DNA from: Naegleria gruberi
Lineage: Eukaryota
Reading direction: 5' to 3' (one strand)
Assembly (NCBI GenBank): GCA_000004985.1
Contig: GG738910.1
Length of the DNA: 64,000 nucleotides
Each line of letters opens with the position of its first letter. The stretch's first letter is position 1. The notes beneath the pieces are model-generated. The model searched no databases. It was not told where the DNA came from and saw only the letters and a list, made by a program, of their open reading frames with translations. This document shows, piece after piece, positions 2,036 through 64,000 of this stretch. Position numbers and translations under genes: made by a program.

Positions 2036-3697
2036 ATGGCGAGACTTTCATGTATTAAAGGTTTATTTAAAATATATATTGCTGTCTTTGCTATTGTTTT
2101 ATTAATTCTAGTGATTATCAACATTCAACGACATGAATCTGTTTTCAAGAAATCATCAACCTTTGAATCTATTCGAAACAAAATTTCGAATATAAATTCG
2201 GATGTATTAACAGATGAAAAAACAAACGAACAACAAAAAGATCAAGTACAAACAATAACTAAACCATCATCAAATTTAAATACAAATATTGCTAATCAAC
2301 AATTGCAAAACAAACAATCAGAAACTACAACACCTCTGATTTGTCTAAATTCCGACTCGAATAGATTGAAAACTAAACAAGAAGAATTATGTGATTCGGA
2401 ATATGGATGTGGAATGCTTCGTCAATGGAAACAAAATCAATTATTAATGTGTGAACGAAAGGAATCCCATCAAAAAACACAATTGACTTGTTATGAACAT
2501 AATAATTATCACTTGCCAACTGCCACCTTTCCACACACAATTTGTGATTCTGAAAATCTAGTCATGGATTTCTCAAAATTAGTAAGAGCACCATGTTTGA
2601 AATATAGACCTGGATATTTTTGTAAAAAGGAAACTTATTACAATTACAAATCTGGAGCATTGATTGGAAATTGTCATAGAACGAATGAATTTTCAAATTT
2701 GAATCATTTTGCAAATGATTTTGGAAAGGATATCTTTTCCAGTTTTATAACATTTGAAGAAAAACAAGTTGATTTGCAAAATGTGAAATTTTTTGATGGA
2801 ATTACTATTTTCGTATCGAGAGAACAAGATGAACATGTCAATATGTTTCATGCAATGAGTGATTTCTTTGCCACACATGTTGTCATTGAAATGTTTAAAC
2901 TGAACAGTTCAAATATTCAAATAGTCATTTTGGATGAGCATTTTGATGGACCTTTTGATTTCTTGTGGGATAAGGCACTTTCCTTCAAGAGACCAATGAA
3001 AAAGGCCTCTTCCTTTTCAAATGGAATGGTAAGATTTGAGAGGGCAATCTTTCAACATGCTGGCTATGCTACACATTTCCTCTCAAATTTGATGAATTTT
3101 AATGAGAATGATGCTACTATGTGTCACTCAAAAATTCCACTCGTTGCCAATTTTGCCAATAGAATTTTGAATGGTTTGGGTATCAAGAAGAGAGAAATCA
3201 ATAAGGGTGATGTGATTCGTGTCTTGTTCATCAGTCGAAGACCTTATGTGAAATTTGGAGTCGAGCACAATTTCATGTCTCGTCAAATTAGCAATGAAGA
3301 AGAGGTGTTGGATCGAATGAAGACTCACAGAGAATATGGCAAGAAATTCACAGTGGAAAGAGTTGATTTTGCACATTTGAAATTAGTTGAACAAATTCAA
3401 AAAGTTCACGATTCAGATTTCTTAATTGGATATCATGGAGCTGGATTGACTCACTCATTGTGGATGCCTGAGGAAACCTCTGCAGTTCTTGAAATTTGGA
3501 ATACAGTAACAACAAGAGGATGGAGATGCTTTGAACAATTCACATTTTGGAAGGGAAACGACTATACATTGTGGAGTAATTCAAATCCAAAGAATTTGAG
3601 AAAGGACAGTTTGGGAGATTACTTGACTGTGGATGTTGCGGACTTTTACAAAACATTTGATAGAATGGTTAACAAGTTGATTGACTCTAGGAATTAG
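2036..3697 (+). CDS. Type II membrane glycosyltransferase, family GT61 (DUF563), EOGT-like (EGF-domain O-GlcNAc transferase-like)
   Basis: 553-aa single-exon ORF. It has an N-terminal cytoplasmic stub plus hydrophobic signal anchor (IYIAVFAIVLLILVIINI). The C-terminal motif IGYHGAGLTHSLWMPEETSAVLEIW...RGWRCFEQFTFWKGNDYTLW matches the GT61/EOGT hallmark (HGAGLTH...V.E......RCY.....G..Y..W). ATG at 2036, TAG at 3695-3697. Confidence 0.8.
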   Translation: MARLSCIKGLFKIYIAVFAIVLLILVIINIQRHESVFKKSSTFESIRNKISNINSDVLTDEKTNEQQKDQVQTITKPSSNLNTNIANQQLQNKQSETTTPLICLNSDSNRLKTKQEELCDSEYGCGMLRQWKQNQLLMCERKESHQKTQLTCYEHNNYHLPTATFPHTICDSENLVMDFSKLVRAPCLKYRPGYFCKKETYYNYKSGALIGNCHRTNEFSNLNHFANDFGKDIFSSFITFEEKQVDLQNVKFFDGITIFVSREQDEHVNMFHAMSDFFATHVVIEMFKLNSSNIQIVILDEHFDGPFDFLWDKALSFKRPMKKASSFSNGMVRFERAIFQHAGYATHFLSNLMNFNENDATMCHSKIPLVANFANRILNGLGIKKREINKGDVIRVLFISRRPYVKFGVEHNFMSRQISNEEEVLDRMKTHREYGKKFTVERVDFAHLKLVEQIQKVHDSDFLIGYHGAGLTHSLWMPEETSAVLEIWNTVTTRGWRCFEQFTFWKGNDYTLWSNSNPKNLRKDSLGDYLTVDVADFYKTFDRMVNKLIDSRN

Positions 3698-38253: not shown

Positions 38254-41200
38254 TTAAACAGACTTCATTTCAACTCCTTGTTTTGAGGAATTTGTAGTTT
38301 CTGGTTTCATTCTCTTAACAACACAATAACCAAAAATTCCCAATACAATAAAGGCAATAATGATAAAGCAAATAATCAAAAAAGCCCACAAAATCCAGAA
38401 TAACTCAGAGATTCCCTTTGGAGTTTCAGGATTAACTTGTTTTTCAATTGGAACAGATGATAAAATACCAACTCTAACATTTTCTGAACATTCACATTGG
38501 CCAGAATTAGAATTGAAGGAGAATTTACATGAAGAAGCATCAATGACTTGACCATTTGTAACTTGAATGCACGAATAAGTTGCCTTATCATTAAAAGTTT
38601 GTGTAAGTGGCAAGGAATGAGTTATTGGAGAGGAATAGTTTGTAATAGATGTTGAGAATTTAATTTCAGATAAATCAGAGACAATAGTATTAGTTGTACC
38701 TTCTTGTTGAGGAGTTACATATTGAGAAACATCCTTAATAATCATCCAAATGTAATTGACTGGCTTTCTGAGAGAGACACTTTGTAACCTTTGAGAAACA
38801 GTTGAAGGAAGAGTTAATGAAGTTTGACTTTCTGTCAAAACTTGTGAATCAAAAGTATTCTTAAATTGCTTGTTGAATTGATGAACTGCAAAATTAGGTT
38901 CAAACTTGAAAGATGATTGACCAACAAGAACCTTTCTTGAAAGTAATGAAACCACCATGTGACAACTTTCCATCAATTCTGAATAGTCATACGAAGGCAA
39001 AGTCTTTAAATAAGAATGCATGGAATTGAGGGACGAAAGCAACAACCTTTCAACACCAACTTCAAATTGGAATAATGGAGTGTTTTCAGCATCATTCAAG
39101 GTTGACTTGATAATATTCATACTCATGTTATAGACATTAGCAGAAACGTAACTCTTCAACATAGATTCAATACCGAACATAATGTTAGTAAAAAACCTTC
39201 CAGTTATCTTTTCTCCATTTTCATTCTTGACTTGTTGGGAAGAAAAGAAAGCAGTAGCCAAATCTTGAGTAATTTCATTCAAAATTTCATAATCTTCCTT
39301 TGTCATTCTACAGTCAAATGTTGTGTAATCAGCCTCACAAACACATTTTCCATTAACCAATGAACCATGTCCAGAACAATCTTTCTTTACACTTCTTGAT
39401 TTAGGGGCGAGAGAATCTGTCATTCTCTTGAGGACTCTTGAAATGATTGCAGAATTGAAAACAGATCTAGCATAATCACCAGTTGGTAATAATAAGGTGA
39501 TGGCGTTCCATTTTGTCATGTACTCCTTGATATCCTTTACCTTTGATACATATGGAGCTGTAATTTGAACTGATTTCTTGGAAAGAGTTGTTGCAGATGT
39601 TTCAGTATCAATAACCTTAACATACAGTTCAAGATTATTACCAGAATTTGGAGTTGGAAGTTTTTGGTACAATTCTTCATCCTTTGATAAGGTAATTAAA
39701 GCACCTGAGAAATCATCAATAAAACCATATTCGAAAGCATAAGTCTTCTTATCATTTTGACAATTTTCACAATTGAAAGTAAAGATTGTGGTCAAAGCAA
39801 TACCAGAAGTTGGACTAATGGCACAACTACATGCTTTTGGAGGTCTGTTAACAGAGAAGGAATAAGAATATGATGTCTTTTGATTATTTCTCTTATCCAA
39901 GATAGTTAATGAAATGGTATTAGAACTACCTTCATCCAAATATTGAGTATCCAAAATTAGAGAATTTGACAATGATGAACTGATACTCATTGGTGATGTT
40001 AATATAGCATCAATAGCCTTGTCATTCAATAACCATGTTCTTGAGATGAATTGATCTATATTTAAATCACCATTAATAGTGACAACCAATTGAATATTGA
40101 CATAATCTCCCTTATTAACCTTTGAAGAAGATACTTGAACAACGGAGATCAAAGGTGGCATGATTAAATGTTCTGCTTGTTGTGGAAAATTCAAATCAAC
40201 TGATGATTGAACAAATCTACTTCCCTTTCGAATAGTGAGGCTAATTCTAACATTTTCTGCTGAACCAAACATTGACTTTTCAATCTTGTATTGTTCAAGA
40301 AAACCTTGAGACAAGTAATTAACAACATCAACTGGACAAACAGTATTAGTAACAGTGTCCACACATGTCCAAGAATAAGTTGGTTGAACATTTTCAGATT
40401 CTGGATCAGTGAAATCAATTCCAATGGTACTGTATTGAGGAGTAGAATCTAAAACATACATGTTCATTGAGAGTGCTTGAGCTACAGTGTCGATAGTGAC
40501 AAGAGCTGTTGAAAATTTGTTAACATTAGAAGTATCGAAAGCAGAGACTTTGAAAACATATTGTCTTGTTTCAATGGTATTGAAATTGGTAATCTTTAAA
40601 TTCTTGAATGAATCAACTGTGAATTCTACTTGAGGACCACTGATTTGTGTCCATGTGTAATCAATATTTGCAGCAGATTCCATGCATATTGGAATGGACA
40701 GCTTCTTCTTGAATGAAATTGGAACGTCACTAGTCTTGACAGTAACTGAACTACTTTTATATAAGCCATCAATGGAAACAACTGGAACAGCATAGGTAAG
40801 TTTGGTGAAACTGAATTGAATCTTATCAACCAATGAATAAACTTGACTAGTTACAGCCAATTCAAATTGATGAACACCAGCATTCATACCAGAATAGCTA
40901 ATATTCAATTTACTTGGGGAAGCAAGAGTAGAATCCAATAACTTTTGAAGTTCTACCTTATTTGGTGATGACAATACAGTCCATTTGAAATTCAATGTCT
41001 TTCTATCAGGGGAATAACTTTCAGAAGCATCAATTAAAACATCTTCACAACTTCCATAAGTGTCCTTAGCTCCAGATATTGTGGCAATCGGACTCTTTGG
41101 TGATAAAGCACCTTGGACAGTAAATGCCAAATATTGAGCATTGACATTATTTGATTCAAAGTATAAATTATTCAAAGAGATACTATCACCTGCCTTCAAT

Positions 41201-43920
41201 TTGTAGTCCGTGTTAAGTTCAATTGAGAATTCAAACGTTTCCTTGTTAGACCAGTAACATTTTGGATTAGTTCCAAGAAGATCAATACTCTTCAACAACT
41301 TGTTACAATCAAGAATCATACTATTAGTATATAAAGAAGAATAAGATGCAGGTGCAATAACCTTAAATGTCAAACCAGTCAAATCATCCATAAAAAGAAC
41401 TGGTCCAATAATCTTTGTTGAACACAATTCACCATAAACTCCATCTGCACAGGTAGAACAAGATTCACCCTTCCAGAAACCTTTCTTGTTATCTGCATAA
41501 CAAGTACATTGTTCAAGCTCATTACAATAACCATTTCCACTACAAGTAGTTGAGGCATTACATTTAACCAAACTATTACACATAGCTCCTAAATAAGGAG
41601 AAACACATGCTGAACAATCTGCACCAGTCCAATAACCTTTGCCAGCTATGTTATCACAGACACAAATATTCAAATCTGTACATTGACCATGTCCAGAACA
41701 AACAGATGAAGCATTGGAAGAAATGCCACCACAAGTGAATTGAGCACAATGACTTCCGTAATATCCAGATTGACAAGAACAATGATCGAAAAAATCACAT
41801 CTACCTTTTCCATAACATGCTGACGCATTTGTTGAGGCAGTTCCATAACAATCAAATTGACTACAATCATATCCAGTAGTATCCATCTAAACAGGAGCAA
41901 TTATTTGGGGAGATGCAACCACCATGTCCATAACATGCTGAACCACTTGTTGAGGCAGTTCCATAACAATCAAATTGACTACAATCATTCCCGTAGTATC
42001 CATCTAAACAAGAACAATTATTTGGTGAGATGCAACCACCATGTCCAGAACATGCTGATGCATTTGTGGAGGCAGTTTCGTAACAATCAAATTGACTACA
42101 ATCATTTCCGTAGTATCCATCTAAACAAGAACAATTATTTGGTGAGATGCAACCACCATGTCCAGAACATGCTGATGCATTTGTGGAGGCAGTTTCGTAA
42201 CAATCAAATTCACTACAATCATTTCCATAATATCCAGCTAAGCATGAACAGTTATTTGGTGAGACACAACGACCATAACTAGAACAAACTGAACCACTTG
42301 TTGAGGCAGCTCCAAAACAATCAAACTCAGCACAGTCATTTCCGTAATGTTCGTTAGAGCATGAGCAATTATTTGGTGAGATGCAATCACCATGTCCAAA
42401 ACAAACTGAACCACTTGTTGAGGCAGTTCCAAAACAATCAAACTCAGCACATTCATTTCCATAGTATCCAGAGGTGCATGAACAATTATTTGGTGCAATA
42501 CAATAGCCATTTCCAGAGCAAGCTGATGAATTACTTGGTGAAATATCAAAACATTTGAAAGAACTGCAATCTGATCCACTATATCCAGCTAAGCATGAGC
42601 AGTTATTTGGTGAGAGACAGGTTCCATGAACAGAACATGCTGATGCACTTTTTGAGGCAGTTCCAAAACAATCAAATTGGCTACAATCATTTCCATAGTA
42701 ATCGTTTGAGCATGAGCAATTATTTGGTGAGAGACATATTCCTTGAGAAGAACAAACTGATGAAGAAGTAAATAATGTACCAAAACATTCGTATTCACTA
42801 CAATTACTACCATAGTATCCATAGGTGCATGAACAATTATTTGGAGCAATGCAACTACCATGACCAGAACAAACTGATGCATTACCTGGAGCAATGTCAT
42901 AACATTTGAATAAACTACAATCAGCACCACTGTATCCAGATAAACAGGAGCAATTGTTTGGAGCAACACAACTTCCATGTCCTGAGCAAACGTTGTGGTC
43001 AGTATTCAAAATATCACTACAATTAAAAAGTTGACAATCTGCACCAAAGTAATTTGTTTCACATTTACAAGTATCTATGGCTGTACATGTTCCGTGGCCT
43101 GAGCAAACAGTTGAGTTGTCACCTGAAATTCCATTACATGTTGGATATTGACAAGTGTTTGGAGCAACACATGTGGTATATTGAGGACATGCTTTTGGAT
43201 GTGTGGCCACAATACCATTACACTTTGGAGTTTGACAATTTGAACCACCCCAAAGTACACCATAATCTGTCAAGCTGCCAGGAGGAAAAAAAGTATCCTT
43301 TCCAAACCCATGGAAAGGAAAAGTTAAACAAGCACCTTTAGTATTGTTAGCGAAATAATCAGACACTTGAAGTACTAACCTTCTAAAGAATAAAGAACCA
43401 TGTTCCCATCAACTTGGAGAACAAATTTGAAAGGTGGAGACTGACTAGCACACTCACCAGTTTTCATGGCTTCCCTGTGTTGATTCAAATCTGCCTTTTC
43501 CGTGTTACCGTCGTACAATTTAAGAGAACCAGTTTGTGTTAACACTAACTTATAACCATCAGTTGCTGGGCCGAAAGTAGAACTATACCGAGTCATTGTT
43601 CTGAGACCTATCTGAATGAGACTACCATCATCGTTCAAGATTAAAGTCAACTTTCCATCAGCAGATGTTAATGCTTTAGTTGCATAGAGAATTGGTGATT
43701 GTTCAGTGAGGCCTGTTTTTTCTGAAAGATCAACACAGAGGCAGCTGTTTTCACCATAGCAAATATTCCCTCCACAAGTCGAATTGTCTGTTCCAGGAAT
43801 TCCATTACAAGTATATGAAGTAACCTCACTGATTATGAAAAGCAAAAGGATTACCAACACCGACACGAACAGTTTCATGTTGTGGATTTTTTTTAAAGTC
43901 GAATTTTCAAATTGAATCAA
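38254..43920 (-). CDS. Large (about 1,870 aa) secreted type I membrane protein. Domain order: signal peptide, bulb-type (GNA-like, beta-prism II) lectin domain, about 19 tenascin-type EGF repeats, laminin-type EGF, PKD/REJ-like region, CxC-ISP module, GPS-like motif, TM, tail ending in KSV. It has one intron and one apparent +1 frameshift
   Basis: Exon 1 is 43920..43380 (MKLFVSVLVILLLFIISEV signal peptide). The lectin signatures are GKLTLILNDDGSLIQ, YKLVLTQTGSLKLYD and FKFVLQVDGNMVLYS (QxDxNxVxY type). A 44-nt intron at 43379..43336 (GTTAGT...AAAG, phase 1) joins ...LYSLE-G-ACLTFPFHGFGKD in frame. The EGF array is then continuous to 41867. At about 41884-41890 (tactacTggatatgattgt) one extra base breaks the repeat consensus ...CSCLDGYYG(N/Y)DCSQFDC..., and the downstream 1210-aa ORF (41886..38254) continues the same array in the other frame. 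Further landmarks are the ACSCAISPTSGIALTTIFTFNCENCQN motif, GQCECSENVRVGIL juxtamembrane, and TM at about 38330-38400. Confidence 0.72.
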
Positions 43921-46961: not shown

Positions 46962-49900
46962 ATGAACCTTAAAAAAATGAAAACATTTCTTGTTTGCTGC
47001 TTGATTTTAATAATCATTTGCACTGTCTCATCNNNNNNNNNNNNNNNNNNNNNNNNNNNNNNNNNNNNNNNNNNNNNNNNNNNNNNNNNNNNNNNNNNNN
47101 NNNNNNNNNNNNNNNNNNNNNNNNNNNNNNNNNNNNNNNNNNNNNNNNNNNNNNNNNNNNNNNNNNNNNNNNNNNNNNNNNNNNNNNNNNNNNNNNNNNN
47201 NNNNNNNNNNNNNNNNNNNNNNNNNNNNNNNNNNNNNNNNNNNNNNNNNNNNNNNNNNNNNNNNNNNNNNNNNNNNNNNNNNNNNNNNNNNNNNNNNNNN
47301 NNNNNNNNNNNNNNNNNNNNNNNNNNNNNNNNNNNNNNNNNNNNNNNNNNNNNNNNNNNNNNNNNNNNNNNNNNNNNNNNNNNNNNNNNNNNNNNNNNNN
47401 NNNNNNNNNNNNNNNNNNNNNNNNNNNNNNNNNNNNNNNNNNNNNNNNNNNNNNNNNNNNNNNNNNNNNNNNNNNNNNNNNNNNNNNNNNNNNNNNNNNN
47501 NNNNNNNNNNNNNNNNNNNNNNNNNNNNNNNNNNNNNNNNNNNNNNNNNNNNNNNNNNNNNNNNNNNNNNNNNNNNNNNNNNNNNNNNNNNNNNNNNNNN
47601 NNNNNNNNNNNNNNNNNNNNNNNNNNNNNNNNNNNNNNNNNNNNNNNNNNNNNNNNNNNNNNNNNNNNNNNNNNNNNNNNNNNNNNNNNNNNNNNNNNNN
47701 NNNNNNNNNNNNNNNNNNNNNNNNNNNNNNNNNNNNNNNNNNNNNNNNNNNNNNNNNNNNNNNNNNNNNNNNNNNNNNNNNNNNNNNNNNNNNNNNNNNN
47801 NNNNNNNNNNNNNNNNNNNNNNNNNNNNNNNNNNNNNNNNNNNNNNNNNNNNNNNNNNNNNNNNNNNNNNNNNNNNNNNNNNNNNNNNNNNNNNNNNNNN
47901 NNNNNNNNNNNNNNNNNNNNNNNNNNNNNNNNNNNNNNNNNNNNNNNNNNNNNNNNNNNNNNNNNNNNNNNNNNNNNNNNNNNNNNNNNNNNNNNNNNNN
48001 NNNNNNNNNNNNNNNNNNNNNNNNNNNNNNNNNNNNNNNNNNNNNNNNNNNNNNNNNNNNNNNNNNNNNNNNNNNNNNNNNNNNNNNNNNNNNNNNNNNN
48101 NNNNNNNNNNNNNNNNNNNNNNNNNNNNNNNNNNNNNNNNNNNNNNNNNNNNNNNNNNNNNNNNNNNNNNNNNNNNNNNNNNNNNNNNNNNNNNNNNNNN
48201 NNNNNNNNNNNNNNNNNNNNNNNNNNNNNNNNNNNNNNNNNNNNNNNNNNNNNNNNNNNNNNNNNNNNNNNNNNNNNNNNNNNNTAACTCTAAGTACAAT
48301 GGTGATTATCAATATGCAACAAATGCCAATTTGAATTATCCATTGGGTGTTTTGATTACACCTAATGGAGAAATGATCATTTCAGAAACATACGGTAACA
48401 GGATTCGCAGAGTATTAACAAATGGAACTATCATTCCACTGGCAGGGAGTGGAAGTTCAAATGATTGTGCAGGTATTACAGCATCTAACACTCCATTGGT
48501 AAGTCCAAAAGGAACTTATTTTAGTGCGAATGGAGATATTTATGTAGCTGAAACTCAAGGTCATAGGATTAGTAGAATTTCAAAGAATGGAATGATTGAC
48601 TCTATTGCTGGTACAGGTAAATTTGGTTTTAATGGAGATAATTTATTTGCTACAGATACACAATTATCAAATCCTTTTGCAGTTGCCTTTGATCTAGAAA
48701 CCCAATTGATTGTCTCAGATTCTGGTAATCATGTCATTCGTAAAATTCTTAGAAATGGAACAATGGTCATTATTGCTGGAACTGGACAATCAGGATATAA
48801 TGGAGATGGAATTGATGCTAAGATTGCAAAATTAAATAATCCATCAGGTATTGTTGTGGATTCTAAAACTGGTGAGCTTTTTATTGCTGACACTGCTAAT
48901 AATAGAATTAGAAAGATTTTAACAAACGGTACTATAATAACTATTGCTGGAACAGGTGAAACAGGATATAATGGAGATGGAATTGATGCAACAAGCGCTC
49001 AAATAAGAGGCGTGTATGGTATTGCCCTTGATGTTAATTCTGAGCTCTACATTGCTGATGCTAATAATTATAGGATTAGAAAGATTTTATCAAATGGAAC
49101 AATTATAACTATTGCTGGAAATGGAGGCTATGGTTTCATTGATAATGTTCTTGCAACAAATGCCAAACTTGCTTTCGTTAATGGAATTGCTGTAGATACG
49201 AACGGTGAAGTTTATATTACTGAGTCTGAGAATGGATTTTCAAATCATCGAATTCGTAAAATATTGACAAATGGAACCATTATAACATTTTCAGGAACTG
49301 GTTCAAGAGGTTATTATGGTGATAATGTGGAAGCAGCTGATGCCAAATTCTATACTCCTTATTTCGTTTCTGTTCGCCAAACAACAGGTGAGGTGCTTAT
49401 TTCAGATACTGGAAATAATTTCTTGAGATTGGTTTCAACAACTCGTCTATGCAATGGAACTCTAGCAAGTGATCCTATGGTTTGTAGTGGGCACGGAATA
49501 TGTTATTTAACAGATGTTTGCACTTGTAACCCTGGCTATATTGGTTCATTATGTGATGTTGTGGCATGTAATGGTTTCAATTCGAGTGATCCTAGAGCTT
49601 GTAATGGACATGGTATTTGTGAAGGACCAAACATTTGTAATTGCACTACAGGTTATGTTGGTTCATTTTGTGATGTTTCTTTGTGTTATGGTTTCAATTC
49701 GAGTGATTCAAGAGTTTGTAATGGACATGGTATTTGTGAAGGACCAGATATTTGTAATTGCAGCACAGGTTATATTGGCCCACTATGTGATGATGTGGCA
49801 TGTGATGGTTTCAATTCAAGTGATTCAAGAGCTTGTAATGGACATGGTATCTGTGAAGGACCAAACATTTGTAATTGCAGCACAGGTTATATTGGTTCAT

Positions 49901-52900
49901 TTTGTGATGTTGTGGCATGTGATGGTTTTAAAATAAGTGATCCTAGAGCTTGTAATAGACATGGTATTTGTGAAGGCCCAAACATTTGTAATTGCACTAC
50001 AGGTTATGTTGGTTCATTTTGTGATGTTTCTTTGTGTTATGGTTTCAATTCGAGTGATCCTAGAGTTTGTAATGGACATGGTATTTGTGAAGGACCAGAT
50101 GTTTGCAATTGTACCACAGGTTATGTTGGTTCATTTTGTGATGTTGTGGCATGTGATGGTTTCAATTCAAGTGATTCAAGAGCTTGTAATAGACATGGTA
50201 TTTGTGAAGGCCCAAACATTTGTAATTGCACTACAGGTTATGTTGGTTCATTTTGTGATGTTTCTTTGTGTTATGGTTTCAATTCAAGTGATCCTAGAGT
50301 TTGTAATAGACATGGTATCTGTGAAGGCCCAAACATTTGTAATTGCACTACAGGTTATGTTGGTTCATTTTGTGATGTTTCTTTGTGTTATGGTTTCAAT
50401 TCGAGTGATCCTAGAGCTTGTAATGGACATGGTATTTGTGAAGGACCAGATGTTTGCAATTGTACCACAGGTTATGTTGGTTCATTTTGTGATGTTTCTT
50501 TGTGTAATGGTTTCAATTCGAGTGATCCTAGAGTTTGTAATGGACATGGTATCTGTGAAGGCCCAAACATTTGTAATTGCAGCACAGGTTATATTGGCCC
50601 ACTTTGTGACGNNNNNNNNNNNNNNNNNNNNNNNNNNNNNNNNNNNNNNNNNNNNNNNNNNNNNNNNNNNNNNNNNNNNNNNNNNNNNNNNNNNNNNNNN
50701 NNNNNNNNNNNNNNNNNNNNNNNNNNNNNNNNNNNNNNNNNNNNNNNNNNNNNNNNNNNNNNNNNNNNNNNNNNNNNNNNNNNNNNNNNNNNNNNNNNNN
50801 NNNNNNNNNNNNNNNNNNNNNNNNNNNNNNNNNNNNNNNNNNNNNNNNNNNNNNNNNNNNNNNNNNNNNNNNNNNNNNNNNNNNNNNNNNNNNNNNNNNN
50901 NNNNNNNNNNNNNNNNNNNNNNNNNNNNNNNNNNNNNNNNNNNNNNNNNNNNNNNNNNNNNNNNNNNNNNNNNNNNNNNNNNNNNNNNNNNNNNNNNNNN
51001 NNNNNNNNNNNNNNNNNNNNNNNNNNNNNNNNNNNNNNNNNNNNNNNNNNNNNNNNNNNNNNNNNNNNNNNNNNNNNNNNNNNNNNNNNNNNNNNNNNNN
51101 NNNNNNNNNNNNNNNNNNNNNNNNNNNNNNNNNNNNNNNNNNNNNNNNNNNNNNNNNACCAAAATTCAAATGTTTCGACTCTAGTTACCATTCAAACAAG
51201 CTCTGAACAATTATATGCAAACCTTTTTATTGATACTATTTCCAGTAAGAAGGTAACACTTGTGGTTGCAAATCAAGATTTAGAACAAAGTAATGAAGCG
51301 GAAACTTGGAGTTACGTTTGTCAAGATGAAAATTTTACTAATTGTGGTCAGACAATTGCCAATATTCTCTCGAATTATGCTTCTATCAAATCTAAAACTT
51401 TGGAATTATCAGCAGATAATTTCCCATCCATTGATTCCACATATTCAATTACTTTAAACATTGTAAAGGGAGTAAGAAGTTTTTCATCTTTAATTTCCTT
51501 GAAATTTCCAAAAGAAAACCAAAAACTTCCTCCAATAGTTAACTTATTGAATGTTATTCCAAATAGAAACAGATTAAGCAAATCTGAATTTTTGAATTTA
51601 CAAATTTCTGTCACTAACAGTGATGGATTGGATGTCAAAAATTTAAAAAGAGAATGGAAATTGAATGGACAATCAATTGATGATAACTATTTAACCAAGA
51701 TGAGTACAGCATTATCAGATTCTAACAATATCGTTTTAAGTATCACCTATTTAGATGAAGGTTCATCTAACGTATTGACATGTCAAGTCACAGATTTGGA
51801 TAGTCAATTGTCAAGCACTTTTAGTTACTCATTTTCAATTATTACATCACCTAAACCATGTCCATGTTCAGTTTCACCATCTACAGGATATGCGTTAGAA
51901 ACAGAATTTACCTTCTCATGCACAAACTGCCAAAATAAGGACAATACTCTAGCATTTAGTCTATCATTTGTAGATGATAAATCTGGAGCTCTTATTCCAC
52001 TTGTAATTGAAGGTGGAAACACATTTACCACAAAGCTTCCATATCCAATTTCCAATCCATTAATGTTTGACATTACAATTGTTGACATAGAGACACTTGC
52101 ATCAGTTCAAAACTATCAAAACATTCAGATGATTTTACCAAAAGCAAGTTCTGTTCGTGAAGTCAAAACAAAAGTTGCCAAGTGGAATACTTTCCAAACT
52201 TCACTTCAACAAAATGATTTGAGAAGAATGATTTTCTCATCTGCAATTATTTCTAGAACCTCTGAGGCAATGATTTCAGCAATCAGTGGAAGAAGATCTA
52301 TTTGTTTGAACGGCGGAGTTTATAATTCTCAATTAAGAAAATGTATTTGTGTGAATGGATACAAAAAGAAAGATTGCAGCCTTAATGAAGAAGATTTCAC
52401 ATTGTTAACTGAATTTAAAGGTGAATTATTTAATAACTTTTTATTTGCATTCAAAAACAGACAAGAACAAATGTCTGAAATGTATATCATCTATCAATTA
52501 TATGGCTTGGATTCACTTTTATCAAATTATGATGAATTGAATGCTGAGATGTTTGCAAATGGAGTCCAATTCTTCAAGGATTTAATATCTTCCGCTGTTA
52601 GTGTTTCTAATTTACATCTAAGACCTGGAATTGACAAATTAACTCAAAATATTATCAACTCACTTTACAGATATTTGATTTATAATGGATGTATTGAAAA
52701 GGAATGTTTGAGAGATCATGTTATTGAAATGATAAGCATGTTGAAAGAAATTTCACAACTATTACTCAGATCCAAACTTGTAGGAGAAAGTGATCTGAAA
52801 TTAGACACTGATTTTATGGTGTTATTGACAAATAAGAACTATAGATACCATTTCAATAGTTTGAAAGTTCAAAATTTAACTTTACCTACCAATGATGAAG

Positions 52901-53529
52901 GAATTTCTTCAATTAATAACAGAATGCTATTGTCTTTCATTTCAACTAGTTCACATAATTTGGCCAACAAAATTGAGTCAACAATTGAAGTTTATGAGAA
53001 GGTAGAAAATAATAGAAAAGAGACTCAAACAATCACCAAGGATTATTCTATTACTTCAAATGTTATAAGTTTTTCCTTTTTAAGAGACCTCCAAATGAAT
53101 CAATCCATTTCCTTCTCCTTCCCTAGAAATGATCAATTTTCCGCAAGAAGCGAGCAATCATTCGAATATTCATGTATTGTAATTTGGAATATCACTCAAG
53201 TTAGACCAGAAAATGAAAATAATAATTGTAAAATAGTTGTCAACCAAGAAACAATTATTTGTCAATGTCCATATCAAAACCAAACTCAAGTAGGTGTTTT
53301 GAGAACAGCCATTTCGAGACGTGTTTCAGTTGAACAAGTAGCTCAACCTTCAGATTCAAGTAATTTACTCTATCTATTATTTTTACTCTTTTTAGTATTG
53401 TTTATTATTTTAATTGTAATAATAATTGGAATTGTTATTGTATGTCTGGTTAAAAGAAGGAGAAATGGTGGTAGTAAAAAGTCAGCAGCACATGTTGAAA
53501 TGGAGACTGTTAAAACTTCGACAGTTTAG
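46962..53529 (+). CDS. Large secreted type I membrane protein interrupted by two assembly gaps. Domain order: signal peptide, [gap], about 8 NHL repeats, at least 9 near-identical 40-aa EGF repeats, [gap], PKD/REJ-like region, CxC-ISP module, GPS-like motif, TM, tail ending in STV
   Basis: ATG at 46962 (or 46977) opens MNLKKMKTFLVCCLILIIICTVS, which then runs into the N-gap. The frame reopens at 48285 (...NGDYQYATNANLNYPLGVLITPNGEMIISETYGNRIRRV...) and is continuous, through the second gap as X, to TAG at 53527-53529. Landmarks are the PCPCSVSPSTGYALETEFTFSCTNCQN motif, IICQCPYQNQTQVGVL juxtamembrane, and TM LLYLLFLLFLVLFIILIVIIIGIVIVCLV. Exon structure inside the gaps is unknown. Confidence 0.68.
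47033..48284. other. Assembly gap (1,252 N) inside the 46962..53529 gene
   Basis: Run of N. Confidence 1.
49555..50611 (+). repeat. Coding tandem repeat, period 120 bp (40 aa: CDV(V/S)(A/L)C(D/Y/N)GFNSSD(S/P)R(A/V)CN(G/R)HGICEGP(N/D)(I/V)CNC(T/S)TGY(V/I)G(S/P)(F/L)). There are about 9 near-identical copies, running into the gap at 50612
   Basis: Successive 120-nt units differ at only a few positions. The array is truncated by the N-gap, so the copy number is unknown. Confidence 0.8.
50612..51157. other. Assembly gap (546 N) at the end of the 120-bp EGF tandem array
   Basis: Run of N immediately after repeat unit 9. Confidence 1.
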
Positions 53530-53689: not shown

Positions 53690-54745
53690 AAGAACTTGGA
53701 AAAATATTTCAAAAATATTGGATCAACATCAGCCGTTGATTCTTGGAGTGATTTCACATCTATTAACTCCAAGAATTTCACCACATCATCTCATCATGAT
53801 TTAAATAATAGTATTAATAGTAATTTTTGGAATTTAATCTTTCATCATGATTTGGAAATAATTTTATTATTTGGAAAAATTCAAGTTGGTACATGATCAT
53901 CGGAACAACTACCAACCATCATCATTGTTATTTATCATCATTATAATAGTAATATTTGTGGAAATAAATCTGATAATAGTAATATTTTAGCGAAATTCAA
54001 TATTTTCACTAAAATCATCATCACTGCCAGATTCACATGATAATTTGGAAAACTTTCAATCTAGTATTGTTCAGAATGGTCAATTTCATCAGGTAAAATC
54101 ACTTCCGAACATTTTCCTATTGGTTATTATGATGTTAGGTATGTGTATATTTTCAAAATGTAAATGGACTATATCTCAACATGTACTTCATCAACTTGGA
54201 AAATGTCTTTCATCACTACTATTCAAATACATAATAAACAATATATTTATTATCAGCTTTTCATCATTTTGTGTTTTTGTCAGCTTCGGAATATTCATGA
54301 TAACAAATCATGATTCATGCCAAAAGTACACAGCCAATCATCTTGAAACATTAATAAACTTTTATTAGTACTATTGTCGATGTACCGTGCCAATTATTTC
54401 GTCGTGCTTCGTTGAAATCATGAAGATTTTGATATTTCTGTTTTAATTAAATTTCACATCACCTACATTGTCTCCTATGATGAAATGTATATAGGGAGGA
54501 TGTAAGCAATACATAGTCGGTACTCTATTCATTGTTTGCTGTTTTATGGTGTATTCGAGATTTTGAAATCTTGAGAAATATCCAGAGGTCATTCACCAAA
54601 TAATTATAATTTCTCTATAAATGAAATGAGGAGGGATTCATGCTATGATTATTTAGAAGAGCCACATAGAGTTTGGATACTATCTGAACTGAAATGAGGT
54701 AGAAAGAGTACAATCTTCAAATGTATTATAATATGTCCTCTCAAT
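53690..54745 (+). repeat. Dispersed repeat family R, A-type, about 1.05 kb; about 160 bp downstream of the stop of the 46962..53529 gene
   Basis: Collinear with 56213..57285 and with 44395..45890 minus the insertion. Its first about 575 bp are homologous (about 75%) to the B-type copies. Confidence 0.75.
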
Positions 54746-55299
54746 ATTGGATTTCGAAAATGGTAAGGCAATCCTAAAGTCATCTTTCAAACACAATACA
54801 GTAGCACATGATAATATTTCTACTTTGTTTATTGGTACAAATTGGAATGACTTTTATTGCCGCTTGTTTTTTGGTTTGCTTACCTTGAGAAGCCACCATG
54901 AAGAGAGTTCTCCCTTTGCTTCCTTCCACTACATCATCTAGATAAGTACCTGATACATTAAAGTGAAGTTAATGTACAAGAACTAAGAAGTACTTCAATC
55001 TATGATTGTTATCAAAATCCTAACTATTCGGTGAGAGATAAAACCTAATTAATAGCGATGCAATAGACAACCGGTTAAAGATGAATCTCTTTCCCATTAA
55101 ATCAATGATTCATAAATAAGGGACTTGTGATTGCTGTATACTATGCATCTTCCTGATAATGTAATTGACCTCGTTTAGTGTAATTCACTGAGATATTCTA
55201 AAAAAGGTGGAGATAATTATTATTTCCTCAAGCACTCCTTGTTCCTTTGCTCTTCAAATACTAGTTAATTAGTGTTGTAGATTAAACAGCTCAAAAAGA

Positions 55300-55833
55300 A
55301 TGCTTCCAAACAATTTAACCAACCAGCAGACACTATTATTCTTGTTGCATCTGATGCTACAGAACTCTAATAATGAAGTGAATCATGATGATTCGTTCCT
55401 TCCGGGCTGGGAAAAAGATGATAATAATTGTTGTCCAGTGAATCAATCAGCACTATCCAATGATAATACTTACACTAATAATACAAATAATATTGTGTTT
55501 GGGAAGGAAGAACCCAAATTACAACCATCCAAGATAATTAAGAGGAATAATAACTCCAATATTACTAATAACAAGCAGCATTCAATGAGAACGCGCCCTA
55601 AGGTTATCAACCCCTCTACTGTAAATACTTCTCCGAGCATTAGCAATAATACTACATTCTTCATCATATCGACCATTGAATCTATTAAGGAAGAAGAAGA
55701 ATTGAAGAAAACTCTTCCTAAACGACCAAGAGGAAGACCTCGTAAGAATAGTTTCGAATCAATGTCCAATTCTTCTTCTTCATCTTCAAATTGTTGCTCT
55801 TCTTCCAGCAGTAAACGAATCAAAAGGGAGTAA
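55300..55833 (+). CDS. Hypothetical small Asn/Ser-rich protein with an AT-hook-like motif (KRPRGRPRKN); it possibly continues into the 55836..56087 ORF
   Basis: 177-aa ORF. Its PRGRPRK core is typical of AT-hook DNA-binding motifs, and the remainder is low-complexity. The adjacent ORF in another frame could be a second exon, but no convincing splice pair was found. Confidence 0.4.
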   Translation: MLPNNLTNQQTLLFLLHLMLQNSNNEVNHDDSFLPGWEKDDNNCCPVNQSALSNDNTYTNNTNNIVFGKEEPKLQPSKIIKRNNNSNITNNKQHSMRTRPKVINPSTVNTSPSISNNTTFFIISTIESIKEEEELKKTLPKRPRGRPRKNSFESMSNSSSSSSNCCSSSSSKRIKRE

Positions 55834-56212
55834 CAATGAAGAATTATCATTCATTTACAAGCTGTTGTGAATACTACAGTACTGAGAATGAAGATAGAAA
55901 TCTTGATCCAAACATTCATCAACATCAACAAAATCATCATCAAGCATTTCATCCTCATGACCTTGGATGGATCAACAATACTGAATTTTTGATTTGTCTC
56001 ATGGTTATAGATGGGAAAATGTCAAAGTTTCCTTCATCAATTATTGGCTTAATTTCTCAAATTAAATCAACCAATTATTTACTATAGTATTAACAATAAC
56101 TATTGTTATATACGAAATAAACCCGTATAAATTATTCAGTAATATTCGGTCGCATCATTCTCCATGCAAAAAATATCTTTGGACACACCGATTCTTGTTT
56201 GTGGAAGAAATC

Positions 56213-57285
56213 AAATAACTTAGAAAAATATTTCAAAAATATTGGAACAACATCAGGTACATCACGACTCTGTTGATTCTTGGAGTGATTTCACATCTAT
56301 TAGCTCCAAGAATTTCACCACATCATCTCATCATGATTTAAATAATAGTATTAATAGTAATTTTTGGAATTTAATCCTTCATCATGATTTGGAAATAATT
56401 TTATTATTTGGAAAAATTCAAGTTGGTACATGATCATCGGAACAACTACCAACCATCATCATTGTTATTTATCATCATTATAATAGTAATATTTGTGGAA
56501 ATAAATCCGATAATAGTAATATTTTAGTGAAATTTAATATGTTCACTAAAATCATCATCACTGCCAGATTCACATGATAATTTGGAAAACTTTCAATCTA
56601 GTATTGTTCAGCATGGTCGATTCCATCAGGTAAAATAACTTCCGAGCATTTCCCTATGGAAATCATGATGATAGATTCATGTATATTTTCAACATGTACA
56701 TGGACTATATCTCAACATGTACTTCACCAACTTGGAAAATGTCTTTCATCACTACTATTCAAATACATAATAAACAATATATTTATTATCAGTTTTTCAT
56801 CATTTTGTGTTTTTGTCAACTTCGGGTTATTCATGGTCACCAATCATGATTCATGCCAAAAGTACACAGCCAATCATCTTGAAACATTAATAAACTTTTA
56901 TTAGTACTATTGTAGATGTACCATATCAATTATTTCGTCTTTTTTCGTTGAAATCATGAAGATTTTGATTTTTCTGTTTAATTAAATTTCACATCACCTA
57001 CACCATATTTTGTTGATGTAAACTAGACTAATTACATGTAAATAATCCATTGTTGATTCTCTAATCATGTTTTATTGTGTTTTTTTTTGTGTATTTAGGA
57101 TTTTGAAATCTTGCACAGTATTCTGCGGTTATTCTTCATATAAATATGATTCCTCACTTCATGATATGAGGAGGGATAGATAGCATGATTGTTTGGAAGT
57201 GTTGTACAAATTTTGGACACTCCCTGAATTGAAATCAGGAAGAAAGAGTCAAATCTTTAACACCATATACAATATGACTTTTGAC
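56213..57285 (+). repeat. Dispersed repeat family R, A-type; the most telomere-proximal copy
   Basis: Collinear with 53690..54745 and 44395..45890. It contains an imperfect version of the 20-bp palindrome (cctcacttcatgatatgagg). Confidence 0.75.
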
Positions 57286-58759
57286 GATGGTTTTGATCTT
57301 GTTGTTCATACCTCAAACATTGGAAAAGGAGAATGATAAACACCTTTTCTAAACATATTCTATATTTATTGAAGTTATGACCATAAGAATAAATTTCGCA
57401 TTACCAAACCATGCGAATTTATTTAGTATGAAATTTATTTTGCATAAATTTTATTCGAATATAATTGCCTGGAACAGGATGGTGATGTTATAGAGCTGAA
57501 ATTGGGAAAGGAATTGATTAATGATAATTATTCAAACATTAATGCTGGACCAATGATTCAAAATTCGAATGGACTTTGGGAATTGTTGCTTCAACATGGT
57601 TTTGAATTGAAGGAAACCAGAAATTACAATTATCCAGATGAAACCTTGAATTTCTTAAAATTAGAAAGATGTTGTTGATGATTTTCAACGTTAGGGATGA
57701 ACCAAACACTTGGAAACTAGTTTGATTTGATATTCCCCATGCAACATGTTGTGGCACAATGTTTGAGGTCCGTTGGTGTTAATAAGGCGATGGTCTATAA
57801 GGCGAAATACCATTGTTTATAGACCTTGATAAAATTTGATTTGTGTCAGCATGCCAAAACGAGACCATTATTGAAAATTCAAAACGCAAGTGCTATTTTG
57901 CAAGCACAATTAGTCTACTGTAGTAGATTTACAGCAATTATAATATAGTAATGTAACTCACCAAATAGAGCACCAACAAAGCAACGTGAAAAGTGGTGAA
58001 CACTAGGTGTTTGGTTCAATGTTCAGAAGGTAATATTGATTGTTTTTTATCCATCCTCAATCACTCCTCAACAAACCAATTCATTCCCGTTAGCATGGAT
58101 ATATAAAAAGTTATTAAGGCGAAAATAAGGTCTAAATTTAGGTATATTATCGAATTCAAAACTATTTTGTTGCACTATACTAAAAGAAACACTGCAGGGT
58201 TTGGTTAGGATTCAGAGTTGATTTATTTGGGTTATTTAAGAGATTACTTAGTGAAGATTCATATAATTGATTATATTTCTTATCATCTATAAATGATGTA
58301 ATTTTGATGGTTTCATTTCTTATATTGATAGATATTTAAAGGTCAGGTCAGAACTAACTTTTGAAATATGGACTTTAAGAATTCAAATGTTTGGGACGTG
58401 AATCTACTCATTAGATTGTGTTGGTATTGCTAATAAAGGAACATTTCATTGATTTATTGATCATAACGGTCAAATTGAGTTGAATGGAAGTGAATCAAAT
58501 GTTGATTGATCGTGGATGGGTAGTTTCGCCACGAAGTGGTGCAACTACCAACCTTTGTAGATTGAATCAGGTTGATTTGAATGCAATATGAATAAGTAAC
58601 ATTATCAAGAGTGATTATTCACCAATTCAATGATCAATATTCATTATTCGGTTTGATTTCAATCAATAGCTTGATCAACAAGCTTTGAATTAATATTCCA
58701 GTAATTAACGGCAGTCTATTTTTAAATTTAATCAAAGACCATATATAGTAGCTTGACTT

Positions 58760-60870
58760 TTGTGATCTGGAAACTATCTAGATGTGTTCTATATTGAATA
58801 ATCTATTTGAAAATGAGAAGAATTAACTCTTCTATTGAGTTTTATTGGTATTGAATGGTATTACGGTTTATAATAATCTACACAGAAATCACTCTTGAAA
58901 TATAAACTGTACTACAATGTATGAGAAACATAATGGTGGTAGAATTAATCAATAACTCGTTGAAATGACTGAGATGGAATGTAAACTATGGTCTATTTGT
59001 CATGTAATGGTGACTAGACAGTGTCAATTTCATCAAATTATTTCAAACTGATTACAATCAATAAAAACCCGTTCCATACATCAAACATGTCATATAGAAT
59101 GAGTTCCAATATTTAATATTGTGAACTGACTCTGCTGGATACCATCTCTATAAATATAACAAGATGTAAAGTGTCAACATTCAATTACACATGCATGTAA
59201 CTATGGAGAATCATCATTATATCATCTAGATAGGAAGTATTTCAAGTTTCAGTGGAATTGACTGTCTAGATATTGAGATGTGTATACTAAGGTTGAAGAA
59301 CTGTCACCTTCACTGATTACTGACATGAATATGACAATTGAATATATTATTGCTGCATTAATAATTCATTGTTCAATTATTATGATATGATGGTAAAATT
59401 TAATTTTGGAATTAAGATACTTCCTTATTGATTACCTTAGAGGTTCCTTAGTTGACTTGAAGATATTGAGCCATGAATATGAAACTTTCTCAGATCGTTC
59501 TCCTCATGAAGAGAAGCGTATTCATATTAGATACTTGTATGATATTTTGTAAACTGACTGAGATGGTATATATTCTATATGTTGAAATGTGACAATTTGA
59601 CAGATTGTTATTATTATCATACTGAATTCAATTCTAACAGACTAAAATTGATACCATATATACAATAGTGTGATTAAACATATCTGGTAAACTTACATGA
59701 TGGTTGGATATACTTTCACTGAGATAGAGTGTACACTTGGATATAATCACTATTGACATTGAACATTAACTGACTCACTCATTGAAAGTAATACGAATTG
59801 TTTTCAAACTATATACAGTGTACTTAATTGATGTATACTCTATCTGGTATCAATTCTAGTTTGATTGTATGTATAATGAGCGAGTTGGAGCATAATCTAT
59901 GATATCATGTCAAAGTTCTATAGTATATTGATAGAGTTGACATCTCGACATCTACTGAACCAGTACTTATGAAATTGATATCATAGGCTAATTAGAGAGT
60001 CTACGTATCATGATATCAATTTCAGTGAAAATGGAGTTGTTTATGTACCTTTCAGATTTCCGTCCATTCTCTTGAAATATCACCATGTACTATCTACTGG
60101 ATGCATTTCTTGAAATAAAAATATATAACTTGATGAAAGTCCACTTTATTTGAGATGTAGAACACGATATTATCATTTATTTTGAGATTGGTAATTTTTC
60201 CTATAGTATCATCCTTATTATCTTAATTGACCTAAAGAGGTCAAGGAGAGATATCAAATCATAAAATAAATGATATTTTCGAGATGTACTATCGATTTCC
60301 AATCTATTGATATGTATTTTGTTGATTGAGGATTTGGTTCTCTATATTCAAGATTTCCTACTGCTCCTAAGTCAACCTTGATATTTCACCCTTTACCTTA
60401 CTGAAAGATAGAATATTCACCAAAATGTCTGAAATTTGAACCATATACAGTATTTGAGATGTTGAACATGATGGTAATGTTTCATAGAGTGGTCATTTTC
60501 CAGATTTTCATCCATGTACACAGTTCAACCATAAACTATCAACATTTACCTTTCCATGGTACCATTTCTGATTCTTATGATATGAAATTGAATTCTACAT
60601 CATTATAGATCATCTACATCATGTTGGTAAAGTTTCAATAGTGGTTCTTTTTCAAGATTTTATCCTTTTCATACCTAGTTGACCATGTGTGGTTGAGGGA
60701 AGAAATCTTTAAATATGAAAGTTAAAATAAATTTGATATTCGATGTTTACTCATCAAATGGAACATTTTCATATTAGGATTCAATATGTTTTGATGAGAA
60801 ACTCAAAAGTTATAGTTGACCTCTTGTACTTCACAACTTCCCTTTTCACTTCATACTGGGTTTGGTACCT
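58760..60870. repeat. Subtelomeric tandem duplication, copy 1 (about 2.1 kb unit with no ORFs, AT-rich, with internal degenerate 100-120 bp sub-repeats)
   Basis: Aligns with 61076..63395 at about 85-90% identity (for example 58761 tgtgatctggaaactatctagatgtgttctatattgaataatct versus 61079 tagtctggaaataggctagatgtgttccatattcaataatct). A roughly 200-bp spacer at 60871..61075 is not duplicated. Confidence 0.7.
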
Positions 60871-61075
60871 GTCATTATCTCTCTGGTTTGGGATCCGCAC
60901 ATGCTCAGATCTTATAGCTTATCAATGTGATGTATAATAGTCTGATCTACTTGTGGTAAAAACACGAAGGTGTAATATTCTATATTTATTGAGATAATCA
61001 ATAAAGTTTAGTATTTGTCAGAAAAACTTGCCCTCTCGCCAAGAATTCATTTTGCCATATTTGGGATCTGGACTT

Positions 61076-63395
61076 TTATAGTCTGGAAATAGGCTAGATG
61101 TGTTCCATATTCAATAATCTATATGAAAAAAAGAAGAAATAAAATTAACTCTTGAATTGAGTATGTAACGACTATTGATATTACTATATATGGTATTTGG
61201 ATAATAACTTTCACAGAAATCATTCATGAAACATAAATTGTACTAAAGTGTGTTAGAAACATAATGGTGGTAAACCTGATCAATAACTCGTCGAAATGAC
61301 TGAGATGGAATGTAAACTATGGTCCAAATGTCATGTATTTGTAACTAAACAGTGTCAACTCCGCCAAAGTGCTTTAAACTAGATTGATATCATCAAAAAC
61401 ACTTCTAGACATCACATATGCCATAAAGAATGAGTTTCAATATTTGATATTGTGAATAGACTCTGTTGGATACCATCCCTATAAATATAACGAGATGAAA
61501 AGTGTCAACATTCAATTTCACATACATGTTACTATGAAGAGTCATCATTATATCATCTAGATAGGTAATATTTCAAGTTTCAGTGGAATTGACAGTCTAC
61601 ATATTGAGATGTGTATACTAAGGTTGAAGAAGTGTCACCTTCACTGATTACTGACATGAATATAATAATTGAATATATGATTCTTGTATAATTAATTCAT
61701 TATTCAATGATTTTGATATGATGGTAAAATTTAATTTTGAAATTAAGATTCTTCCCTATTGATTACCTTATATGTTCCTTAGTTGACTTGAAGATATTGA
61801 GCCATGAATATGAAACTTTCTCAGATTGTTCTCCTCATCAAGAGGAGTGTATTCATATTTGATACTTGTATGATATTTTGTAAAATGAATGAGATGGAGT
61901 ATATTCTATTTGTTGAAATGTGACAATTTGACAGATTGTTATTATAATCATATTGAATTCAATTCTAACAGACTAAAATTGATACCATATGTATAATAAT
62001 GTGATTAAATGTATCTGGCAAAGTTACATGATGATTGGACGTACTTTCACTGATATGGAGTGTACACTTGGATAAAAGCACTATTGACATTGAACATTAA
62101 CTGACTGACTAATTGAAAGTAATACGAATTGTTTCCAAACTATATACAGTGTATTTAACGGATGTATACTCTATGTGGCATCAATTCTAGATTGATTGTA
62201 TGTATAATGAGCGAGTTGGAGCATAAGCTTTGATTTTATGTCAAAGTTCTATAGTAAAATGATAGAGTTGACAACTCGACATCTACTGAACCAATATTTA
62301 TGAAATTGATATCATATGCTAATTAGAGTGTCTAGATATCATGATACCAATTTCAGTGAAAATGGAGTTGTTTCTGTACATTTCAGATTTCATCCATTCT
62401 CTTGAAGTATCACCATGTACTATCTACTGAATGCATTTCTTGAAATGAAAATATATAATTTGAAGATAGTCCACTTTATATGAGATGTAGAACACGATAT
62501 TATCATTTATTTTGAGATTGGTAACTTTCCCTATAGTATCATCCTTAATTGTCTTAATTGACTAAAAAAGCTCAAGGAGAGATTTCAAAACATAAAATAA
62601 AATATATTTTCGAGATGTACTAATGATTTCCAATCGATTGATATGTATTTTGTAGATTGAGGATTTGGTTCTCTATATTCAAGATTTTCCTCCTGATCTT
62701 CCAAGACAACCTTGAAATTTCACCCTTTACCTTACTGAAAGATAGAATATTCTCTAAAATGTCTGAAAATTGAACCATATACATTATTTGAGATGTTAAA
62801 CATGGTGGTAAAGTTTCATAGAGTGGTCATTTTCCAGATTTTCATCCATGTTCACAGTTTACTAATTGGTATGATAGAGTTGAAATCATGAACATGAAAG
62901 TGAAAATAAACTTGATTTTCTATCTCTACACATCGAATGGAGCATTTTCATGTATATATTGTTGGTTGAAGTGATGTATTTGATAGAGTTGGTCTGACTT
63001 GTCTTTCTCTAAAGTCAACCATAAAATATCAACNNNNNNNNNNNNNNNNNNNNNNNNNNNNNNNNNNNNNNNNNNNNNNNNNNTTCTCATGGTACCATTT
63101 CTGATTATTAGGACATGAAATTGAATTCTATATCATTCTAGATCGTGTACATCACTTTGGTAAAGTTTCAATAGGTGGTCCTTTATCAAGATTTCCACCT
63201 TTTCATCATAGTTGACCATGTGTGGTTGAGGGAAGAAATCTTTAAATATGAAAGTTAAAATAAATTTGATATTCGATGTTTACTAAACAAATGGAACATT
63301 TTCATGTCTGGATTCAATATGTTTTGATGAGAAACTCAAAAGTTATAGTTGACCTCTTTTACCTCACATCTTCCCTTTTCACTTGATACTTTTAT
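61076..63395. repeat. Subtelomeric tandem duplication, copy 2; contains a 50-N gap at 63034..63083
   Basis: See copy 1. Similarity ends at about 63395, about 300 bp before the telomeric array. Confidence 0.7.
63034..63083. other. Assembly gap (50 N)
   Basis: Run of N. Confidence 1.
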
Positions 63396-63690
63396 ACCTA
63401 CCGACATGAAGTTTAGAAATTTCATATGAGAGTGATTATGAATGTTGTTAGTGAAGATATATACTATATAATCTCATTAAAGGATTTTGAAATTATCATT
63501 CTTCCTATGGTTTCATTTTATAATTTTTAATCTGACATTATTTACAAAGTTAATATTTTATAAATTGAAAAACTAAATATAATACATTGTTCTACTCATC
63601 ATTTACAATCGAATGATATAATATTCAATAATTTGGGCTAGGGTTTGAACTTTGAAACATTGGGTCTGGTATTTCAATTTTAGGTTCAAA

Positions 63691-64000
63691 GGTTTAGATT
63701 TTTAGGCTTGGGTTTTTAGGCTTGGGTTTGGGTTTGGGTTTGGGTTTGGGTTTGGGTTTGGGTTTGGGTTTGGGTTTGGGTTTGGGTTTGGGTTTGGGTT
63801 TGGGTTTGGGTTTGGGTTTGGGTTTGGGTTTGGGTTTGGGTTTGGGTTTGGGTTTGGGTTTGGGTTTGGGTTTGGGTTTGGGTTTGGGTTTGGGTTTGGG
63901 TTTGGGTTTGGGTTTGGGTTTGGGTTTGGGTTTGGGTTTGGGTTTGGGTTTGGGTTTGGGTTTGGGTTTGGGTTTGGGTTTGGGTTTGGGTTTGGGTTTG
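63691..64000 (+). repeat. Telomeric repeat array. Degenerate lead-in (TTTAGATTTTTAGGCTTGGGTTTTTAGGCTTGGG), then about 46 perfect TTTGGG units (63724..64000) running to the window end; the G-rich strand points 5'->3' outward
   Basis: Perfect hexamer periodicity to the last base. It is preceded by variant repeats and by non-coding subtelomeric tandem duplications. Confidence 0.75.

Follow-up and report, generated by a model that had tools for sequence, protein, structure and literature searches.

A perfect TTTGGG array graded into degenerate variants at a probable chromosome end of Naegleria gruberi

The 64-kb stretch of DNA analysed here (64,000 nucleotides in full, hereafter the window) closes with an uninterrupted run of TTTGGG hexamers, which raises the question of whether its last bases belong to a chromosome end. 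An earlier note, made from the letters of this DNA, had claimed a perfect TTTGGG array that extends to the last base with the G-rich strand facing outward, and repeat finding, direct reading and shuffling all confirmed that description. Tandem Repeats Finder returned a single period-6 array of 46.5 copies (279 bp; 100% matches, 0% indels) at 63722-64000, and a direct read of positions 62000-64000 placed the G-rich strand on the + strand, running 5' to 3' outward as TTTGGG as far as base 64000. Base and unit counts revealed 45 full TTTGGG units and a complete absence of A, C and GGGG from the array; since GGGG is absent, no TTGGGG unit occurs in it. Similarly, the 12-mer TTTGGGTTTGGG, searched with at most one mismatch, matched 45 times, in every case inside 63721-63996, against 0.39 matches expected by chance and a maximum of 2 in dinucleotide shuffles. 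The array thus displays a short (5-8 nt) T/G-rich unit repeated in tandem and a G-rich strand oriented 5' to 3' toward the end of the molecule, as in telomerase-type telomeres. Base 64000 is the last letter of the window, which leaves only the proximal flank visible, and the fact that the array reaches it therefore fits a contig end and a window cut alike. The array and the DNA immediately proximal to it comprise the following features.

63722..64000, + strand: perfect (TTTGGG)n array, probably telomeric (100% matches; 45 12-mer matches versus 0.39 expected).
63699..63729, + strand: two TTTTTAGGCTTGGG variant units (period 14, 2.2 copies, 100%).
63631..63698, + strand: decayed telomere-like units (identity gradient of repeat family D1; base counts).
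63391..63630, no strand: unique, very AT-rich spacer (21% GC) separating the telomere-like zone from the last subtelomeric repeat (direct read, base counts).

The proximal flank carries the variants that the earlier note had placed ahead of the array, that is, TTTAGA-type and TTTTTAGGCTTGGG units. Two copies of TTTTTAGGCTTGGG were identified by Tandem Repeats Finder at the proximal edge of the array, and GGTTTAGA lies just proximal of this pair, at 63691. These variants belong to a longer stretch of ~90 bp (63631-63721) made of decayed telomere-like units, for example TTTGGG-C-TAGGG-TTTGAA...TTTTAGG...GGTTTAGA, which keep the register of the array and whose identity climbs from 61% to 100%. 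The stretch also shares the strand bias of the telomere-like array, with 25 G to 8 C and 39 T to 19 A, unlike the adjoining 240-bp spacer, the strand composition of which is balanced. Both the identity gradient and the strand bias therefore describe proximal degenerate variants that grade into a perfect array across 63631-63726.

Further inward, the DNA is poor in genes and rich in repeats. No large gene lies distal of 53529, and the ORF list contains nothing longer than 83 aa from 55.9 to 63.7 kb, so that the subtelomere, presented as ORF-free in the earlier note, is essentially that. The ~8 kb without a long ORF that precede the array are made of diverged tandem duplications.

53690..57257, + strand: diverged direct duplication in gene-poor DNA, distal of the last large gene and proximal of the 2.3-kb units.
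58739..60857, + strand: ~2.3-kb unit, copy 1, 88-91% identical to copy 2.
61055..63033, + strand: ~2.3-kb unit, copy 2, telomere-proximal, with an extra monomer at 62767-62955 and no ORF >54 aa.
63034..63083, no strand: scaffold gap, 50 N.
63084..63390, + strand: distal ~300-bp monomer, 91% identical to 60552-60857, on the 917-bp terminal contig.

The first of these duplications is direct and pairs 53690-54717 with 56214-57257 at 87% identity. Closer to the array, 58739-60525 matches 61055-62859 (88% identity) and 60552-60857 matches 63084-63390 (91% identity), which together define a ~2.3-kb unit in two tandem copies. These units are partly composed of diverged sub-repeats of ~300 bp, all in direct orientation and restricted to the last 4 kb of the window, and copy 2 has gained one additional monomer with respect to copy 1. 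A coding function of the 2.3-kb units was considered and rejected, as neither contains an ORF >72 aa. The last ORF before the non-coding subtelomere (55300-55833, + strand) specifies 177 aa of low-complexity, Asn/Ser-rich sequence with an AT-hook-like motif, RPRGRPRKN, and yielded no match in Pfam. Telomere-like 8-9-mers, TGGGTTTGG and GGTTTGGG, were also noted on the + strand at 60857-60892 (60857/60885), with similar ones at 58197/58226. The position of the former pair is suggestive, as it coincides precisely with the point where copy 1 ceases to resemble the telomere-proximal copy, and the pair may survive from an earlier chromosome end; neither pair, however, could be told apart statistically from background.

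Collectively, the perfect G/T-rich array, its outward G-strand, the one-sided gradient of variants and the repetitive, gene-poor subtelomere support the chromosome-end telomere proposed in the earlier note. We infer from these features, with high confidence, that the array is terminal and represents one chromosome end of Naegleria gruberi.

Whether this telomere sits on the right chromosome end depends on the scaffold. Like the tandem duplication of the subtelomere, the 50-N gap at 63034-63083 went unmentioned in the earlier note. It lies 640 bp proximal of the array, which is therefore carried on a terminal contig of 917 bp (63084-64000) joined to the rest of the window by scaffolding alone. 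The sole sequence linking this contig is the common ~300-bp repeat, with at least three copies nearby, so that a real telomere could have been attached to the wrong chromosome end. However, homology to copy 1 continues over the gap in the same block order (60525 to 60552 in copy 1 corresponds to 62859 to 63084 in copy 2), which supports the join. JGI scaffolds are, moreover, joined by mate pairs, and this was also counted against a wrong attachment. We thus regard such a misplacement as very unlikely; a telomere scaffolded onto the wrong end would in any case remain an N. gruberi telomere.

A second alternative holds that the array is an interstitial telomere-like microsatellite, terminal in appearance because it is cut by the end of the window or of a collapsed assembly. 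At base 64000 a window cut and a contig end look the same, and environmental contigs often contain internal (TTTGGG)n runs. When metagenome contigs were scanned for (TTTGGG)6, at least 120 loci holding at least 132 arrays came to light; when those within 12 nt of a contig end were scored as terminal, 103 of the 132 arrays among the matches listed were internal and 29 terminal. Among these matches, however, the internal arrays had 7 copies in the median and at most 17, against the 46.5 perfect copies found here, a size far outside the range of internal microsatellites, although this comparison is only indicative since short-read assemblies truncate repeats. A window boundary would fall by chance inside an array of ~300 bp in only ~0.5% of cases, and both the one-sided degeneracy gradient and the outward G-strand further argue against an internal position. 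Further weight comes from the survey by Fulneckova et al. 2013 (Genome Biol Evol; PMC3622300), who screened 143 genome assemblies for minisatellites located at ends in the correct orientation and who list TTTGGG as the in-silico candidate telomere repeat of N. gruberi and report its repeats in a telomere-like terminal pattern in the assembly. An interstitial origin is thus highly improbable. The telomeric reading is the one that this listing bears out: the TTTGGG telomere of N. gruberi is already known in silico and, as it was listed in 2013, the finding is real and not new.

The terminal arrays of the metagenome scan deserve separate consideration. Among the matches listed, 22 of them point outward and 7 inward (binomial p = 0.008), and on contigs with <45% GC the ratio rises to 18 outward versus 2 (p = 4e-4). 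At least 13 outward (TTTGGG)n ends derive from a single data set, JAESGV01 / IMG 3300037860 (loci L006, L028, L030, L041, L053, L076, L077, L081, L082, L083, L101, L114 and L119 of our scan). In this data set the arrays abut unique or genic DNA abruptly, with no subtelomeric repeats in between. The junctions of L082 and L083 contain TTGGGG/TTGGG variants. In L083, ~140 bp separate the telomere array from the start of a Ty3/gypsy pol ORF, and two PPR-DYW genes, both intronless, are located within 11.5 kb of the array; a homology search with one of these two genes returned plant matches only, at 20-25% identity. The PPR-DYW family of editing factors is otherwise typical of land plants. Outward terminal (TTTGGG)n arrays were also detected in other metagenomes, on AT-rich, gene-dense, standard-code contigs (L063, LUMJ01000369.1; L075, VFQO010000557.1; L008; L094). 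Searches with blastn and tblastx evidenced no similarity between the metagenomic TTTGGG-ended contigs and the window. The occurrence of outward terminal TTTGGG on AT-rich eukaryotic contigs from several metagenomes indicates that this unit also caps chromosome ends in eukaryotes other than N. gruberi and that its taxonomic range is probably wider than recorded.

The gene content of the window bears on the identity of the host. The ORF at 38254-41886 (- strand) is 99% identical, over 100% coverage, to a 'predicted protein [Naegleria gruberi]' (EFC38229.1 / XP_002670973.1, NAEGRDRAFT_74099), which is annotated on a 243,952-bp scaffold; tblastn placed this protein at 43878-38257 (- strand), interrupted by two short introns of ~117 nt in total. 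Long ORFs in the window end at TAA, TAG and TGA. The protein match, the three stops and the short introns together identify the window as nuclear DNA of N. gruberi that uses the standard code, and, to judge from its sequence, the host is Naegleria gruberi, an amoeboflagellate heterolobosean and not a ciliate. The earlier note was accordingly right to read taxonomic information into TTTGGG and to be sceptical of a ciliate source; its statement that TAA and TAG serve as stops held for both codons and was incomplete, as TGA closes ORFs too.

The long ORFs of the window specify a GT61/EOGT-like glycosyltransferase along with clustered giant proteins of the NHL-EGF-REJ type; neither Rfam families nor tRNA were found in the 64 kb. 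The glycosyltransferase ORF (2036-3697, + strand) is intact, specifies 553 aa resembling a GT61 / EGF-domain O-GlcNAc-transferase and has its best matches in Naegleria lovaniensis, N. fowleri, N. gruberi and Willaertia magna. These database matches reach just 44-50% identity, which first suggested a different heterolobosean as the source, an idea given up in view of the 99% match of the other ORF to an N. gruberi protein. No exact product is on record for the glycosyltransferase ORF, and its sequence probably represents an unannotated paralogue. The adjacent cluster of giant EGF-repeat genes could provide its substrates. This cluster (6253-53529) comprises at least six very large paralogous genes with NHL repeats, teneurin-type EGF repeats and a REJ (PKD1-like) domain, the longest ORF reaching 4078 aa, and occupies most of the 55 kb adjoining the subtelomere; homologues elsewhere in N. 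gruberi are just 25-34% identical. The product of the gene that ends at 53529 is 1732 aa long, combines NHL, EGF and REJ domains and has a hydrophobic, apparently transmembrane stretch at its C-terminus. Two genes, one on each strand, contain long in-frame tandem arrays (41797-42991 and 49537-50609) of a 117-bp unit equivalent to one 39-aa EGF module, with a higher-order period of 351 bp and 75-91% identity. Assembly gaps at 47033-48284 and 50612-51157 adjoin or interrupt the repeat-rich genes of the cluster, so that the EGF-module copy number is probably under-assembled.

Although Paramecium telomeres contain TTTGGG units, the entry of foreign DNA into the scaffold, such as a Paramecium-type ciliate macronuclear end, is effectively refuted and of negligible probability, given that TTGGGG accounts for 0 of 46 units, that the telomere-adjacent DNA of the terminal contig matches N. 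gruberi sequence lying 2.5 kb upstream at 91% identity, and that the rest of the window consists of standard-code ORFs with an exact N. gruberi protein match.

For the N. gruberi telomere, general telomere biology suggests how the observed anatomy could arise. Telomerase would lengthen the G-strand at its 3' end by repeatedly copying an RNA template that carries the CCCAAA complement over ~1.5 repeats, and the telomerase RNA transcript would then be expected to contain CCCAAACCC or AACCCAAAC. Distal repeats would then remain perfect because turnover continually resynthesises them, whereas proximal repeats, beyond the reach of telomerase, would decay because they are no longer renewed, mutating into TTTTTAGGCTTGGG, TTTAGA and TAGGG variants. 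The array would bind end-protection proteins and buffer the loss of ends during replication, and its 279 bp would be a minimum imposed by the length of reads and assembly rather than the true telomere length. The telomerase RNA itself had no Rfam match in the 64-kb window, where C-strand template-like 9-mers occur at chance level (7 observed versus 1.9 expected, with a maximum of 8 in shuffles). Candidate templates at 4756, 27271 and 43302 were discarded on these grounds, two of the three being located within coding ORFs.

Within the literature searched, no other paper ties Naegleria to TTTGGG or CCCAAA, none deals with Naegleria telomerase RNA or TERT, and none confirms the repeat experimentally, the assignment being in silico only. 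A clean, probable chromosome end of N. gruberi is useful for experimental design for this reason: together with its junction, it offers a ready substrate for TRF, BAL31 and TRAP experiments, as well as a starting point for a template-based search for the telomerase RNA. The TTTGGG repeat flags a probable scaffold end and marks the window as heterolobosean rather than ciliate. What is new here is limited to the local anatomy, namely the two TTTTTAGGCTTGGG units, the ~90-bp decayed zone, the duplicated 2.3-kb subtelomere with its ~300-bp sub-repeats, and the scaffold gap.

Subtelomeres diversify surface-protein families in other protists. A joint reading, which we consider unlikely, would make TTTGGG a marker of a wider lineage and the N. 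gruberi subtelomere a site where surface-protein genes diversify. On the first count, the group could consist of largely unsampled, standard-code, AT-rich protists that include the sources of the metagenomic TTTGGG-ended contigs. On the second, by analogy, the non-coding architecture of ~2.3-kb and ~300-bp repeats beside the giant NHL-EGF-REJ cluster might drive the diversification of this family.

The end described here can be set against four known or candidate telomere systems. The metagenomic contigs (JAESGV01 / IMG 3300037860, LUMJ01000369 and VFQO010000557) share with it a terminal, outward TTTGGG array on AT-rich, eukaryote-like DNA, and differ in the lack of sequence similarity to the window and in their abrupt junctions devoid of subtelomeric repeats. 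Telomeres of the TnAmGo type (TTAGGG, TTTAGGG, TTGGGG) resemble it in that a short T/G-rich unit containing a GGG block forms a perfect distal array, flanked on its proximal side by degenerate variants and by a repetitive, gene-poor subtelomere. TTTGGG departs from TTAGGG and TTTAGGG in having no A, and from the TTGGGG of Tetrahymena in one T more and one G fewer; TTAGGG is also the unit of trypanosomatids. In Paramecium, telomeres mix TTGGGG and TTTGGG, and the interspersion is attributed to misincorporation or stuttering at one template position (PMC5855555; PMC13085455). The hexamer, made by telomerase in Paramecium, and the outward G-strand are common to this system, in macronucleus and micronucleus alike, and to N. 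gruberi, so that the likeness to a ciliate variant unit drawn in the earlier note stands. It does not extend to the Paramecium type as such: two units are interspersed there, whereas the array here is pure TTTGGG, with no GGGG in 279 bp, and the host there is a ciliate, whereas here it is a heterolobosean in which TAA, TAG and TGA end long ORFs rather than TAA and TAG being read as sense codons. The 143-assembly survey (PMC3622300) includes the trypanosomatids, Discoba relatives with known telomeres, alongside the N. gruberi candidate. With the latter, the window agrees in species, in hexamer and in kind of evidence, that is, a terminal, correctly oriented array in an assembly, and nothing of substance sets the two apart. 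In all likelihood, the window is one of the scaffold ends behind this listing.
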